NCBI GenBank assembly: GCA_963772455.1
Contig: CAVYXJ010000010.1
Location: 384,001-448,000 of the forward strand
Direction of reading: 5' to 3'
DNA length: 64,000 nucleotides
From: Candidatus Bathyarchaeota archaeon
Lineage (GTDB): Archaea > Thermoproteota > Bathyarchaeia > Bathyarchaeales > Bathycorpusculaceae
Shown here: one piece after another, positions 27,515-63,352 of the stretch
How the letters are laid out: every line of letters starts with the position of its first letter
Position numbering within the stretch: the first letter of the stretch is position 1
Program-made: the position numbers and the translations under genes
Notes under the pieces: generated by a model
Database searches by the model: none
Seen by the model: the letters and a program-made list of their open reading frames with translations, nothing else
What the model was told of the DNA's origin: nothing

Positions 27515-27620
27515 ACAATGACACCATGCATAGGCCAAACAACAACGACGCAACACACTATATACGAGAAATATGTGTTTCACCAAACGCCAAACAGACA
27601 CTACCATTGGCCCGAAACAT
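27515..27620 (+). repeat. 5' arm of 23S processing stem (pairs with 30635-30730) with a BHB-like motif
   Basis: ccatgcataggccaaac/gtttggtctatgcatgg; cagacactac/gtagtgtctg; bulges aaa and ata around cgcc/agcg. Confidence 0.85.
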
Positions 27621-27621
27621 G

Positions 27622-30633
<3,012 letters not shown>

Positions 30634-30988
30634 GATGTCGAGTCAATGTAGTGTCTGAGCGATATTTGGTTGAGACGCATATTTCGGTGTAGTGTGATGT
30701 AGTGTTTGGTCTATGCATGGCGTAACTGTCATATTGCTTAGAATTTTCTTTTTTTTTATTATTTTTGTTATTTTATGGATAGAGTAAAGAAAGATTTTTA
30801 TTAAAAAATCATGTTGTATTTGGTTTTTCATTGTTTACTTATGGGTGTTAGTTTGTAGCCTTTTTTTTATTTGATAATCTGAGTAGTTAACTGTTGGGAT
30901 TGAAGCTGGGAAAACAATTGTCCCGATTAGTTTAGTTGTTTTTGAGTAAAAGTTAAATCTTCATTACAGCTAAGATTCGCTGATTGAG

Positions 30989-57844: not shown

Positions 57845-58471
57845 TTAACTTTCTATAGGCTTTTCTAAAATGGTTATTGTTCCATTTTTTCCAAGTCGCA
57901 GCTGCTTTTCGCCCTTAAACATTGCCACATGGGCGTTCTTGATTTCTATGTATTCGCCAGCATGGACGCTATTAATCTGCTCATCCCAAAGACACAGGAG
58001 AATTTTTCCTGATTCATCGCCAATTGTGGCATTAGAAACAACTGCGTTGTCCCTAAATTGAGTGTGAACTTTGGCCGGTTCCGCAGTTTGCAAAACTTCC
58101 GCTGTAACATTTATTTTTTTCATACCAACACGCAAATTTTCTATCTTGAAATGTGAAGGCGCTGGGTTTTGTCTAGCAATTTCTTTTCGAACCTTGCTCG
58201 TGTCCATTGAGTGGTCGAATGAAACATCGGTTCTTGCAAGTGTTTCATCTGGAACTCGGAACTGTGCAACTACTTTAGTATCTTTTGTTATTAGGAAAAT
58301 GGCTTGGGTAGTTACGTTTCCTCGATACTCCACAGTTAAATCTGAAACAGACATTGGTTTGCTTTGTTCTTTTGCATTAATTAGGGCTTGAAAGAGTTCG
58401 GTTGGGTAAACTTCATGCTGAGTAGCAATGAAGGCAAGTTGGTCTTCTAATGTGGGCTTTTTTGGTTTCAT
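57845..58471 (-). CDS. OB-fold single-stranded DNA-binding protein (SSB/RPA-like) with N-terminal extension
   Basis: KIENLRVGMKKINV.AEV...VSNATIGDESGKI.LCLWD...IKNAHV..FKGEKQL.LGK. Confidence 0.82.
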   Translation of the reverse strand: MKPKKPTLEDQLAFIATQHEVYPTELFQALINAKEQSKPMSVSDLTVEYRGNVTTQAIFLITKDTKVVAQFRVPDETLARTDVSFDHSMDTSKVRKEIARQNPAPSHFKIENLRVGMKKINVTAEVLQTAEPAKVHTQFRDNAVVSNATIGDESGKILLCLWDEQINSVHAGEYIEIKNAHVAMFKGEKQLRLGKNGTITILEKPIES

Positions 58472-58738
58472 ACTTTATTTTGTTCTCCTTTCAATTTAGC
58501 GAATAATCTTGAAAATAGCAAACTAGTTAGCCCTAAAATTTACTTTTTCCTCGATTAACTTCCGCAATTTAATAGTAAGGTTACTTTAGCTATATAGGTG
58601 TAACTATAAAAAAACGGGTTTCTCATGGACAACTATCCTCCTTGTGGAAGGCACTCAAAAGCTGACGAGGGCTTCCAAAAAGCAAAAAGCATAGCTTCTG
58701 CATATGAATTATAGAGCGCTTATTTTTGGAGTTATATT

Positions 58739-59614
58739 ATGACCGAAAACCTAAGAGACTTAACCAAAGTTGACTTAAAAAACCTCGATAAAATCTTCTA
58801 TCCCAAAAACGAAGTAACCAAAGGACAAGTAATAGAATACTACGTTCGAATGGCGCCAAAGATTCTTCCTTTAATTGCAGATAGACCACTGGTCTTAACT
58901 AGGTATCCTGACGGTATTGAAGGTGACAAAGTCAGGTTTTTTGAAAAGAACGCTCCCGAAGGCACACCTAAATGGGTTAAAACCCAAATAATCTACTCCC
59001 CAACATCAAAACGAAATGTTTACTACATAGTATGCAACGACTTGGATACTCTCATTTGGCTGGCAAACTTGGCTGCATTGGAAATCCATATGCCATTTTC
59101 CAAAATTGACGATTTAGACAAGCCCGACATGTTATTCTTTGATGTAGACCCCGAACCACCAGCAACGTTGAGTGATGCTGCTGAAGTTGCATTGCTGCTT
59201 AAAGACAAACTATTGGAATTGGGGCTCACACCTTACGTTAAAACTTCGGGCAAAAAAGGTTTACATGTCGTAATCCCCATAGTTGCCAAACACCCGTTTG
59301 AGAAAACGAGAGCTTTCGTGCATAAAGTTGGAATCGAACTTGCAAAAGAAAACGAAATAGTAGTTTCTGAATTCAAGGATACAAAAAAACCAGGAAAAGT
59401 TTTTGCCGATTACTTGCAGAATTCTCCAATGCGAACTATGGTTGTTCCCTACAGTTTAAGGCCGACAACTGAAGCTACAGTTTCAGCGCCTTTAGAATGG
59501 AGCGAAGTGAAGAAAGGAATAAACCCTTCCGACTATACTATTTCTACAGTAGTTAAACGCACGAGTAATCCGTGGAAAGATATTTTTGAAAAAAGATGTG
59601 AACTGGAGATTTAA
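58739..59614 (+). CDS. NHEJ primase-polymerase (LigD Pol domain)
   Basis: NLDKIFYP, RPLVLTRYPDGI, FDVDPEP, KTSGKKGLH, DYLQN, PYSLR. Confidence 0.93.
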   Translation: MTENLRDLTKVDLKNLDKIFYPKNEVTKGQVIEYYVRMAPKILPLIADRPLVLTRYPDGIEGDKVRFFEKNAPEGTPKWVKTQIIYSPTSKRNVYYIVCNDLDTLIWLANLAALEIHMPFSKIDDLDKPDMLFFDVDPEPPATLSDAAEVALLLKDKLLELGLTPYVKTSGKKGLHVVIPIVAKHPFEKTRAFVHKVGIELAKENEIVVSEFKDTKKPGKVFADYLQNSPMRTMVVPYSLRPTTEATVSAPLEWSEVKKGINPSDYTISTVVKRTSNPWKDIFEKRCELEI

Positions 59615-59616
59615 TT

Positions 59617-60441
59617 ATGGAACAAGAAAATATTGAAGACCCCCCTTCTGAAAAAACCAGTGCTTCAGCCCCAAGTAGATCCATTTGGTCAGGAAACATT
59701 ACGATTGGCTTAGTTAATGTTCCCGTTAAATTGTTCTCAATGATTTACGATAAGGGTATAGCATTTCATTTTCTGCACAAAACTGATGGTCAACCATTAA
59801 AATACGTTAAAATGTGCACTAAAGACGACAAAATAGTGCCTTGGAACGAGGTAGTAAGAGGATACGAAGTATCAAAAAATGAATTCATAACATTCGATCA
59901 AAATGAACTCAACCAAGCTAAACCCGAATCAGACAAGCGAATTCGCATAAGCAAATTTGTTGATTATTTCTCAGTTGACCCAGTTTACTTTGACAGAACG
60001 TACGCTTTATTGCCAGACAAAAGCAAAGATGCCTACGGGCTGCTTTTAAAGGCACTTGAAAAAACCAACAAAGCAGGGGCAGGCAGAATCACGTTACGAA
60101 CGAAAGAATACCCAGCGCTTCTTCACACATACAAAGGCGCCTTAGTCTTAACAACGCTCCGATACTCATACGATGTAGTAAACCCAACAGATTTTGAACC
60201 CCTGCACAAACTTGAAACACCCCCGAAAGCGGAATTAGATCTTGCAGTAAAAATCGTAACTGACCTATCAGGGGAATTCGATATAACAGAATTCGAAGAC
60301 ACATACCAGAAAAGAATCAAAGAACTGGTAAAACAAAAAGTTAAAGGCGAAAAAATTCACATTGAGAGACCTCCAGAAGTTGAAGCCAAGGGACTCATGG
60401 TTGCACTTCGAGAAACGCTCAAGCAGTTGGAGACGAAATGA
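59617..60441 (+). CDS. ku: Ku DNA end-binding protein
   Basis: RSIWSGNITIGLVNVPVKL, VRGYEV, DPVYFDRTY.L.P, AYGLL..AL, EDTY. Confidence 0.95.
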   Translation: MEQENIEDPPSEKTSASAPSRSIWSGNITIGLVNVPVKLFSMIYDKGIAFHFLHKTDGQPLKYVKMCTKDDKIVPWNEVVRGYEVSKNEFITFDQNELNQAKPESDKRIRISKFVDYFSVDPVYFDRTYALLPDKSKDAYGLLLKALEKTNKAGAGRITLRTKEYPALLHTYKGALVLTTLRYSYDVVNPTDFEPLHKLETPPKAELDLAVKIVTDLSGEFDITEFEDTYQKRIKELVKQKVKGEKIHIERPPEVEAKGLMVALRETLKQLETK

Positions 60442-61898
60442 GTCGCCACATTTACCGCCCAATGCTTGCAAAGGTTGCCGAAGAAGCTTTTTCAGATAAA
60501 GAATGGTTTTTTGAAGTAAAATGGGACGGATTTCGAGCAATTGCCTACATTGAAGAATCTTTCAGCCTCAAGAGCCGTAACGAAAAAGAACTTAAAGGCA
60601 ACTTTCCAGAACTGCAGGAACTAAAAAAACTTGCCAAAAACATAGTTGTTGACGGCGAAATCATCGTTATGCGAGAAGGCAAACCCGACTTCCAATCGTT
60701 GCTTGAACGCGGGAAAGCTGTTTCTGAAGGAGAGATTCAAAGGCAAGAAAATCGGTTACCTGCAATCTACATTGTTTTTGACATCTTAGAGAAAGATGGA
60801 AAATCCCTAACTAAACTCCCATTGACTGAACGAAAAACAATCCTTAAAGATTCTCTAGTGGAAGGCTCAAACGTAATTTTATGTGATTTTATTGAGGAAA
60901 AAGGCGAAGCCTATTTTCAATCAGTTTTAGAAAAGGGCTTAGAAGGGGTAGTGGCAAAAAAGAAAGATAGTCTGTATGAAGAAGGTTTGCGGACTGGGAG
61001 TTGGCTAAAAATAAAAAAACTCAAAACATGCGATTGTATAATTTTCGGTTATACCAGGGGCAGCGAATCAAGAGGAGCAACCTTTGGAGCCCTTCTCATA
61101 GGCGTATACGACGAAAAAGGTAAGCCAATTTATCTAGGCAAAGTTGGAACGGGTTTCACGCAAGAGATGATTAGAATTTTAGTTGATAAATTTGAAAAAA
61201 TAACAACAGAAGCTCCACCATTTAAGCCGGAAGTTGGCGATGTTGTGTATTGGCTTGAACCAAAACTTGTCTGTGAAGTTGCCTACCAAGTGGCTACGAG
61301 GGATCTAAGATTACGTATGGCACGTTTCAAACGTTTAAGAGATGACAAACCACCTGAACAATGCACCATTGATCAAATAATCGAGATTAAGAAAACAGAA
61401 GTCGACGAAACTAATGATAAGACAAGGCAGAAAAGTGAAGAAGAATCCGAAAAGCTTTCAGAATACTCTAAAAAACGCCACTTCGAAGAAACACCCGAAC
61501 CCATAGCCACAATAGAAAAAAAAGACGGTAAACTAATTTATGTAATTCAAGAGCACCATGCAAGAGCTCTCCACTTTGACCTTAGATTGGAAAAGGATGG
61601 TGTGTTAAAAAGTTGGGCTGTTCCAAAAGGAATCCCTGAAGGTCCGGAAAAACATTTGGCAGTGGAGGTTGAAGATCACCCTTTTGAATACGCAAGTTTT
61701 GAGGGCACAATTCCTAAGGGGCAATATGGTGCCGGGACAGTAAAAATCTGGGACAAAGGGCACTACGAGCCTAAACTCTGGGAAAAAGACAAAATTGAAG
61801 TTACCCTAAATGGTGAACGTCTCAATGGGCGCTACGTTCTGATTCGACTCAAGAGAGCAGGAGAAAAAGATTGGCTCTTGTTTAAAGGAAAAGAATAA
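60438..61898 (+). CDS. ligD: LigD-type ATP-dependent DNA ligase fused to C-terminal 3'-phosphoesterase domain
   Basis: EVKWDGFR, DGEI, FDIL, EGVVAK, WLKIK; PE motifs YSKKRHFEETPEP, IQEHHARALHFDLRLE, SWAVPKG, EDHP.EY. Confidence 0.93.
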   Translation: MSRHIYRPMLAKVAEEAFSDKEWFFEVKWDGFRAIAYIEESFSLKSRNEKELKGNFPELQELKKLAKNIVVDGEIIVMREGKPDFQSLLERGKAVSEGEIQRQENRLPAIYIVFDILEKDGKSLTKLPLTERKTILKDSLVEGSNVILCDFIEEKGEAYFQSVLEKGLEGVVAKKKDSLYEEGLRTGSWLKIKKLKTCDCIIFGYTRGSESRGATFGALLIGVYDEKGKPIYLGKVGTGFTQEMIRILVDKFEKITTEAPPFKPEVGDVVYWLEPKLVCEVAYQVATRDLRLRMARFKRLRDDKPPEQCTIDQIIEIKKTEVDETNDKTRQKSEEESEKLSEYSKKRHFEETPEPIATIEKKDGKLIYVIQEHHARALHFDLRLEKDGVLKSWAVPKGIPEGPEKHLAVEVEDHPFEYASFEGTIPKGQYGAGTVKIWDKGHYEPKLWEKDKIEVTLNGERLNGRYVLIRLKRAGEKDWLLFKGKE

Positions 61899-61899
61899 T

Positions 61900-62642
61900 A
61901 TGCAAAACCTCCATTTAGGAACAATTGGATTTAGCTATAATTTCTGGAAAGGAAAATTTTACCCAAACAAAACTTGTCAAAAAACTACTTGGCTTATTAC
62001 TCCACGCAATTCAATACAGTAGAAATTGACAGCAGCTTCTACCGAATTCCAACATCTCAAACAGTAGAAAACTGGAAAAAACAAGTTCCAGAAGGATTTC
62101 TTTTCTCGTTAAAATTTCCCCAAATAATAACTCACATAAAAATGCTAAAAGACTGCCAATACGAAACTAATATTTTTCTTGAAAGAGCAAGCCTTCTTGA
62201 AAAAAAACTTGGAGCTTTACTTTTGCAGTTTCCACCCAATTTCAGCACAAAACACCTCGCTGACATGGAGTTTTTCTTACAAAAACTGCCTACAATCCAT
62301 CGTTACGTCGTTGAAGTCAGAAACAAAAGCTGGTTAAACCAAGAATTTTATTCAATTTTAAAAGCTAATAACATTGCTTTGGCAACGTCAGATAGCCCAC
62401 TAATGGCTCAAATCAACGAAGTAACAGCCGATTTCCTATATTTTAGATGGGAAGGTGACCGAAAAAAAGTCAACGGTACTTTAGGTAAGGCTGAAGCCGA
62501 CAAATCCAAGGATTTGAAGTTGGTAGCAGAAAAAATCAAACCTTTCTTAGATAAACAGACAACTCTCTTTGGGTACTTTGGCAAATACTACTCAGGCTAC
62601 CCCCCCTCAGACATCGTTAGCCTTCAATCATTAATCAAATAA
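61900..62642 (+). CDS. DUF72 (YecE-like) protein; frameshift near 61974
   Basis: MQNLHLGTIGFSYNFWKGKFYP then shifted LAYYSTQFNTVEIDSSFYRIP, KFPQIITH, LLQFPP, VEVRNKSW. Confidence 0.85.
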
Positions 62643-62741: not shown

Positions 62742-63352
62742 ATGTTCTTTAGACAAATTCAACAACACAGCGACAATTTCTCGTACATTATAGCCGATGA
62801 GGATACACTTGACGCAGCAGTTGTAGATTCAAGTTATAATGCTGACGAAATAATAAAAATAATAAAAAACGAGAAAATTACAATTAAAATACATTGTTAA
62901 TACACATGGTCACTCTGACCACACCGCTGGAAATATAGAACTTCAATCGATCTTTGGAGCAAAAATAGTTGCTCATAAACAAACTAAAATTCACCCTGAC
63001 CTCCTCAGTGGATGAGGGCAAAACACTTAGAATTGGAAAAATATCATTAAAAATTATTTACACACCCGGACACACCGCCGATAGCATCTGCCTCCTTGTT
63101 AACGACCAGAAACTGCTAACGGGCGACACCTTGTTTGTCGGCGAATGTGGAAGAACCGATTTTCCCGGTGGCAACACAATAAGTATGTACGAGAGCCTCA
63201 ATAGACTTCAAAAACTAAGCGACAACATGAAGTTTATCCTGGACACGACTACGGATTAAGCCATCATCAACAATCAGGGGAAGAAAAAAAATCGAACTAC
63301 ACTCTGCAACCACGGAGCTTAAGGAATTTATCGAGTTTATGAGTCAGCCTTA
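62742..63352 (+). pseudogene. Metallo-beta-lactamase/glyoxalase II-like hydrolase, multiply frameshifted
   Basis: NFSYII, THGHSDH, TPGHT, TGDTLF...GRTDFPGG and YPGHDY spread over different frames. Confidence 0.8.

Follow-up and report, generated by a model that had tools for sequence, protein, structure and literature searches.

The closest described counterpart of the locus considered here is the archaeo-prokaryotic non-homologous end joining (NHEJ) machinery of Methanocella paludicola, which comprises four activities, Ku, ATP-dependent ligase (Lig), primase-polymerase (Pol) and 3'-phosphoesterase (PE), with a separate Pol (PMC4797286) and a stand-alone PE of 198 aa (PMC3082917). In bacteria, Ku is encoded next to LigD, in which the domains are fused as Pol-PE-Lig in Mycobacterium tuberculosis, PE-Lig-Pol in Pseudomonas aeruginosa and Lig-Pol in Bacillus subtilis (PMC8656161). 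A complete NHEJ set has already been published for Nitrososphaerales, which belong to the same phylum as Bathyarchaeia, and is reported as a bacterial acquisition that Nitrososphaera has lost (PMC7554672). Of 243 archaeal genomes surveyed in 2020, 10 had Ku together with a ligase (PMC7719229), a 2025 paper speaks of very few archaea with Ku (PMC12019639), and a 2025 survey of Ku lists 19 archaea, Bathyarchaeia not among them. Here, we describe a four-gene cassette consisting of Pol, Ku, a fused Lig-PE and a DUF72 gene in a 64,000-nt stretch of Candidatus Bathyarchaeota archaeon (contig CAVYXJ010000010.1, positions 384,001-448,000, assembly GCA_963772455.1), hereafter the window, whose positions are used as coordinates. 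Judged from its sequence, the locus belongs to archaeo-prokaryotic NHEJ by the features tested, one variable PE position apart; the Lig-PE fusion, the gene order and DUF72 set it off from the systems described in the literature searched.

The locus resembles that of Methanocella in its four activities, separate Pol and catalytic residues, but PE is fused behind the ligase and DUF72 is added. With bacterial LigD it shares the domains, the active sites and the adjacency of Ku, but it encodes a two-domain Lig-PE and a free Pol. All four genes lie on the + strand. The stand-alone LigD-type NHEJ primase-polymerase (291 aa, 58739..59614) is followed by a prokaryotic Ku with a short C-terminus (274 aa, 59617..60441), the fusion of ATP-dependent ligase, linker and 3'-phosphoesterase (486 aa, 60438..61898) and the DUF72 TIM-barrel gene (61900..62642; PF01904, E 2e-54). 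Successive genes are separated by 2, -4 (an ATGA overlap) and 1 nt, in agreement with the coordinates and tight packing of Pol, Ku and ligase in the original prediction. All parts of the Pol-Ku-Lig/PE operon, which it had called complete, are indeed present, but the fourth gene had been overlooked. A putative ribosome-binding site, GGAG, precedes Pol (58728..58731, + strand), and the same motif lies ahead of the start in six of the seven relatives shown. A scan for sigma-70 promoters, a model ill-suited to archaea, stayed below chance level.

Profile searches, which had been proposed as a check, identified all components with Pfam and with four NCBIfam NHEJ models. Pol matches LigD_Prim-Pol (E 3e-81) and TIGR02778 (247.6 bits, cut-off 214.7); Ku matches its Pfam family (E 4e-38) and TIGR02772 (244.5 bits, cut-off 150); the ligase and PE exceed TIGR02779 (271.7, cut-off 227.75) and TIGR02777 (189.3, cut-off 144), respectively. 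TIGR02776, the model of three-domain LigD, remains below its cut-off, and Pol is a separate open reading frame with the Ku gene in between, so this is not a three-domain bacterial LigD. The best PDB match of Pol is the Methanocella NHEJ polymerase 5dmu (E 5e-47), followed by 5op0 and 6sa0 (E 2e-44), which we take to be Prim-PolC.

Pol residues D135, D137, S170, H176, D224 and R241, motifs I-III among them, do not vary in any of the 99 full-length homologues; for the phosphate pocket, three residue labels are presumed. In the ligase, K28, D30, R33, R47, E74, E169, K174, R185, K191 and K193 are kept in 82-83 of 83 orthologues. The six catalytic residues of PE (H373, H379, D381, R383, H414, Y418) are invariant in 83/83, E412 also lies in the active site, and R347 and E354 of the N-peptide are invariant as well. 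Catalytic positions were mapped by motif, with numbering from PMC8656161, PMC3082917 and PDB alignments, and the residue counts refer to 99 Pol and 83 Lig-PE sequences passing an 88% coverage filter, which removed split reading frames (L101, L102 and L104, likely assembly indels). The position of Asp15, which Pseudomonas PE needs for 3'-phosphatase activity (PMC3082917), is occupied by H348 and varies across the 83 orthologues (D in 28, N in 26, H in 22, R in 5); the best PDB match of PE, 3p43 (E 8e-47), likewise has His there. The earlier statement that all catalytic motifs are intact thus stands for Pol, the ligase and the PE catalytic six, but not for the Asp15 position. Ratios of nonsynonymous to synonymous substitutions (dN/dS) against two close relatives are 0.07-0.10 for Pol, 0.02-0.03 for Ku, the most constrained gene of the cassette, and 0.07-0.09 for Lig-PE. 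With NHEJ models above cut-off, conserved catalytic residues, purifying selection on Pol, Ku and Lig-PE (dN/dS 0.02-0.10) and a kept gene order, it is quite probable, on sequence evidence and by analogy, that the cassette is intact, mends double-strand breaks through end joining and has been kept in many Bathyarchaeia.

As predicted, PE is C-terminal to the ligase: Pfam domains A_M (aa 8-193) and A_C (aa 213-304) are followed by LigD_N (aa 371-470), and the PE domain including the N-peptide spans 61455..61892 on the + strand (TIGR02777 at aa 340-485). The same three domains are found in 120 of 120 Lig-PE homologues among the matches listed, at 98-100% coverage. The domain order itself is less exceptional than first claimed. 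Of 33,881 cluster representatives, the 150 best break down into 84 PE-Lig-Pol, 44 PE-Lig, 9 Pol-PE-Lig, 7 Lig-PE (some of them fragments), 5 Lig-PE-Pol and 1 Lig; four of the five Lig-PE-Pol proteins carry bacterial names (Blastocatellia, Planctomycetota, Parapedobacter, Opitutia). The latter likewise have ligase and then PE on one chain, differing by the C-terminal fusion of Pol. In a ligase tree of 83 sequences, all cassette copies fall in one archaeal clade of 29 (SH-like approximate likelihood-ratio test, SH-aLRT, 100), which excludes the bacterial Lig-PE-Pol ligases and all named bacteria, two of its members being unnamed representatives. The Lig-PE-Pol ligases branch in four separate places outside this clade, and the Lig-PE order therefore likely arose more than once, as far as sequences tell.

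Between the end of the ligase and the N-peptide, the linker measures 13-37 aa. In two termite-gut records (L077:4957-4960 and L100:4829-4832), Lig and PE are separate genes with an ATGA stop-start at the linker, where fused relatives have a Met; a change of about one base thus separates the fused from the split form. Since two termite-gut lineages have split Lig and PE again, the fusion is probably helpful rather than essential.

The DUF72 gene begins with an ATG at 61900, 1 nt past the Lig-PE stop, shifts frame near 61968 and ends at 62642. Near 61968 the window has one base fewer than five of five relatives, and a contig from sequencing run X1, ~96% alike, carries the additional base. Two downstream genes are also broken here and intact in relatives, one encoding a metallo-beta-lactamase-fold protein (62742-63259) and the other a glycosyltransferase (G000:C10:448693-450032). 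On these grounds the frameshift is probably an assembly error, although it may instead be a strain-specific mutation. DUF72 evolves with dN/dS of 0.13-0.14. The model of an intact orthologue has a predicted local distance difference test score (pLDDT) of 92 and a template modelling (TM) score of 0.85 to 1vpq, the TIM-barrel protein TM1631. Members of the family share this fold and a predicted link to DNA repair, having been predicted to be endonuclease IV-like (PMC3828134) and called UVDE-related (PMC11791011). The link published in the latter text is an enrichment near polB2 operons, whereas here the gene adjoins a Ku-ligase cassette. Some DUF72 protein is present in 354 of 401 Bathyarchaeia genomes, making the family as such uninformative; therefore, a single orthologue was used as the query. 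The cassette DUF72 genes form one clade (100/96), distinct from paralogues and from the copies at the second type of locus described below. Two tandem DUF72-like paralogues lie elsewhere in the genome, away from NHEJ genes (G000:C12:88513-90251).

The cassette is widespread. Ku was found in 22 of 41 relatives, in 45 of 56 genomes of the host genus and in 130 of 401 Bathyarchaeia genomes (124 above the cut-off), covering 23 of 132 genera. A draw across the phylum gave Ku in 7/301 genomes, only one of them outside the class among ~255, and the family of that genome has Ku in 2/32. The phylum that includes Ca. Methanoperedens, which we take to be Halobacteriota in GTDB, has Ku as well, in 47 of 251 genomes. 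Its supposed rarity in archaea does not hold in these groups. Loci were retrieved from 41 of the 84 Ku-positive genomes of the class outside the genus; 33 are of the cassette type and eight of an unrelated type. The full Pol-Ku-Lig-PE-DUF72 order is present in 13 of 19 loci of the genus (three are cut by contig ends, one lacks Pol in the stretch, two lack DUF72) and in 30 of the 33 cassette loci of other genera (one without DUF72, two without PE). Ku lies within the cassette at every complete locus examined. The original prediction had allowed that the arrangement might already be widespread and described in this lineage; widespread it is, but no published description of NHEJ in Bathyarchaeia was found in a search that covered mainly papers outside subscription. 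Nor was a description of the gene order, the two-domain fusion or the accessory gene found, with the caveat that the supplement of PMC7719229, searched by term, may use another notation for Lig-PE. In the same body of literature, no published link of DUF72 to NHEJ or to Ku and LigD was found.

Other layouts exist. The unrelated second type, seen in eight loci of one family (f34: L134-L136, L138-L140, L142 and L143), has a divergent Pol, Ku and an unfused ligase (~37% identity); three genomes of genus g127 with this type add a DUF72 of another clade and a separate, convergently oriented PE. In the phylum of Methanoperedens, Pol-Ku-Lig-PE occurs in 2 of 40 loci and also in L079. Four genomes of this phylum have Ku fused directly to an ATP-dependent ligase, giving proteins of 649-667 aa (L184:5927-7897, L202:5930-7879, L203:1337-3340 and, partially, L173). 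A further archaeal layout consists of Ku, ligase and a PE-Pol fusion of ~450 aa (L174, L182, L183, L199, L201, L205). Two loci, L175 and L176 (5252-6676), contain a very divergent Ku with no match to ligase, Pol or PE in the fetched stretch, and the Ku frame of L176 has ~210 additional N-terminal residues with no Pfam match.

Where the cassette came from can be approached from composition, synteny and phylogeny. The assignment of the host to Bathyarchaeia is borne out by 79 related loci, mostly from Bathyarchaeota/Bathyarchaeia, and three Ca. Bathycorpusculum copies share a Ku clade with the window (SH-aLRT 100), making this genus the most likely host. A recent gain from bacteria by the host genome, or a chimeric contig, might be suspected given that the components are bacterial in type and that the Lig-PE order recurs in bacterial Lig-PE-Pol. 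Such an origin is highly improbable and was rejected on composition, synteny and independent contigs: among 598 genome segments, the tetranucleotide distance of the locus ranks at the 75th percentile, with GC of 0.37-0.40, leaving no sign of the break near ~58.6 kb that a chimera would have produced; the flanking SSB, PRC and metallo-beta-lactamase genes are syntenic in relatives; and independent contigs from four runs cover the region. The presence of Ku in most genomes of the genus and the placement of bacterial Lig-PE-Pol ligases outside the archaeal clade also speak against it. In the Ku tree, other archaea make up the nearest outside branches and the host genus forms one clade; no bacterial donor of Ku or ligase appears among the sampled sequences, which for Ku include two bacteria. 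The earlier suggestion of lateral acquisition thus survives for an old event only. Most sampled genera form single clades and families do not, and monophyly of the host order is rejected (approximately unbiased test, p-AU 0.017). From these sequences, the cassette is likely old, inherited within genera, often lost and moved between archaeal lineages, and it may have had an ancient bacterial source. Two loci labelled as other organisms, L055 and L059, were regarded as mislabelled and not as transfers: their genes are 58-81% and 66-75% identical to those of the window and have Bathycorpusculum-type neighbours. L158 (G564), from a genome of the same phylum outside Bathyarchaeia, carries the full four-gene cassette on an 8-kb contig, either by transfer or by mis-binning.

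By analogy with the enzymes of Methanocella, Mycobacterium and Pseudomonas (PMC4797286, PMC8656161, PMC3082917), both DNA ends would be bound and held by a dimer of Ku, and gaps would be filled with ribonucleotides by the free Pol, which may also displace strands. Surplus 3' ribonucleotides and 3' phosphates would be trimmed by the manganese-dependent PE, and the nick sealed by the ligase to which PE is fused. Fusion of Lig and PE would couple trimming and sealing, whereas Pol stays free. The chemistry itself is probably textbook. Gene order, co-occurrence and the two in silico papers on the family weakly suggest that DUF72 would incise or clean damaged ends for end joining, something we consider rather less than an even prospect. 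A broader reading, which we advance only tentatively, is that a single mobile end-joining cassette of archaeal birth is present in roughly a quarter of Bathyarchaeia genomes, with DUF72 as a fifth NHEJ enzyme that would clean damaged ends and would have been recruited twice to Ku-ligase loci.

The association on which DUF72's role turns is tight: the cassette clade is found in 91 of 105 genomes with cassette Ku and in 4 of 273 without Ku, by a score cut set at the weakest match beside Ku and chosen after seeing the data, with kin that are not independent. For this count, 23 genomes of the second type were set aside (by genus, eight checked) and two marginal Ku matches were treated as negative. 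In two of the four Ku-less exceptions the gene follows PE or Lig-PE, and in the other two it lies at a contig end. Alternatively, DUF72 could be a passenger, captured once beside the ligase gene and co-transcribed, with a role unrelated to end joining in an otherwise ordinary NHEJ operon; we regard this as possible but doubtful. The presence of some DUF72 in most Bathyarchaeia would fit a passenger, as would its absence from part of the cassettes, L079 and L170 included, and the seven bacterial plasmid copies with no Ku or LigD annotated nearby, but the clade is almost never met without the cassette, DUF72 keeps its place where extra genes insert into the cassette, and a different DUF72 clade occurs at the unrelated Ku-Lig locus. 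It is unlikely that the main task of the cassette is the excision repair of clustered or single-strand damage, in the manner of mycobacterial LigC and Prim-PolC, which act in gap repair (PMC12019639). DUF72 would then nick at the lesion, Pol would fill in ribonucleotides, and PE and ligase would complete the repair; Ku would come into play only where two lesions meet. The endonuclease IV-like and UVDE-related predictions (PMC3828134, PMC11791011) are in keeping with this, and the 5op0 and 6sa0 matches of Pol come near the best one; however, Ku is part of every complete locus examined and the most constrained gene, DUF72 has been lost more often than any other member, and both Pol and ligase exceed NHEJ-specific cut-offs.

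Several results weigh against the end-joining reading given above, in which DUF72 would incise or clean damaged ends. The gene is dispensable, 14 of the 105 cassette genomes having no cassette-clade copy, and it occurs in none of 41 loci of the Methanoperedens phylum, including L079 and L170 with the same Pol-Ku-Lig-PE order. Neither Ku nor LigD is annotated within 5 kb of any of seven DUF72 genes on bacterial plasmids, from the 7 of 184 records opened, which are incompletely annotated. A fold search with DUF72 points to no nuclease in particular, UVDE ranking 20-21 (TM 0.58, E 6e-4) amid many TIM barrels. In PE, the position of the Asp that Pseudomonas PE needs for 3'-phosphatase activity is taken by His348 and varies among orthologues. 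As for origin and mobility, the Ku, ligase and concatenated trees come from quick searches, the Ku tree includes only two bacteria, and monophyly of all Bathyarchaeia copies is not rejected (p-AU 0.21), so vertical descent with losses is possible at the level of the class. DUF72 is also absent beside the cassette in L077, L100, L056 and L093.

With 124 of 401 genomes above the Ku cut-off, most of them having one conserved cassette, end joining is likely to be common in this abundant uncultured class. Lig-PE offers a small natural model of end healing handing off to sealing, with the natural split forms as a control, and the close association between one DUF72 clade and the cassette makes a family of unknown function directly testable. 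If DUF72 is indeed an NHEJ enzyme, this would be the first defined pathway for a widespread family and would overturn the view of NHEJ as marginal in archaea. The host genome further encodes an Mre11-like protein next to a Rad50-like open reading frame (labelled by eye) and two other ATP-dependent ligases; the cassette thus adds to other repair routes.

Upstream of Pol, a divergent SSB-like OB-fold gene identified by profile matches lies on the - strand (57845..58471). It was rejected as a cassette member, being present in 13 of 19 loci of the genus versus none of the 33 loci of other genera, and is probably outside the cassette. A 4Fe-4S-domain aldo/keto reductase gene sits between Pol and Ku in L046 (1824-3031) and in 13 other loci of the genus. 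In three loci of genus g94 the same place is taken by a conserved gene of 218-235 aa (L149:6777-7433, L150:4729-5436, L151:5156-5815) with no Pfam match in the one tested; by eye it contains a stretch that we presume to be PD-(D/E)xK-like. At L070:1719-7989, Ku-Lig-PE-DUF72 appears twice, tail to tail, through duplication or an assembly artefact. Within the genus (g1), Ku-positive genomes have a median size of 2.5 Mb (n=45) and Ku-negative ones 2.0 Mb (n=11), from rounded sizes of kin that are not independent. Elsewhere, the window contains an archaeal 23S rRNA gene (27608-30645) and four tRNA genes, with no match to 16S rRNA within its bounds.

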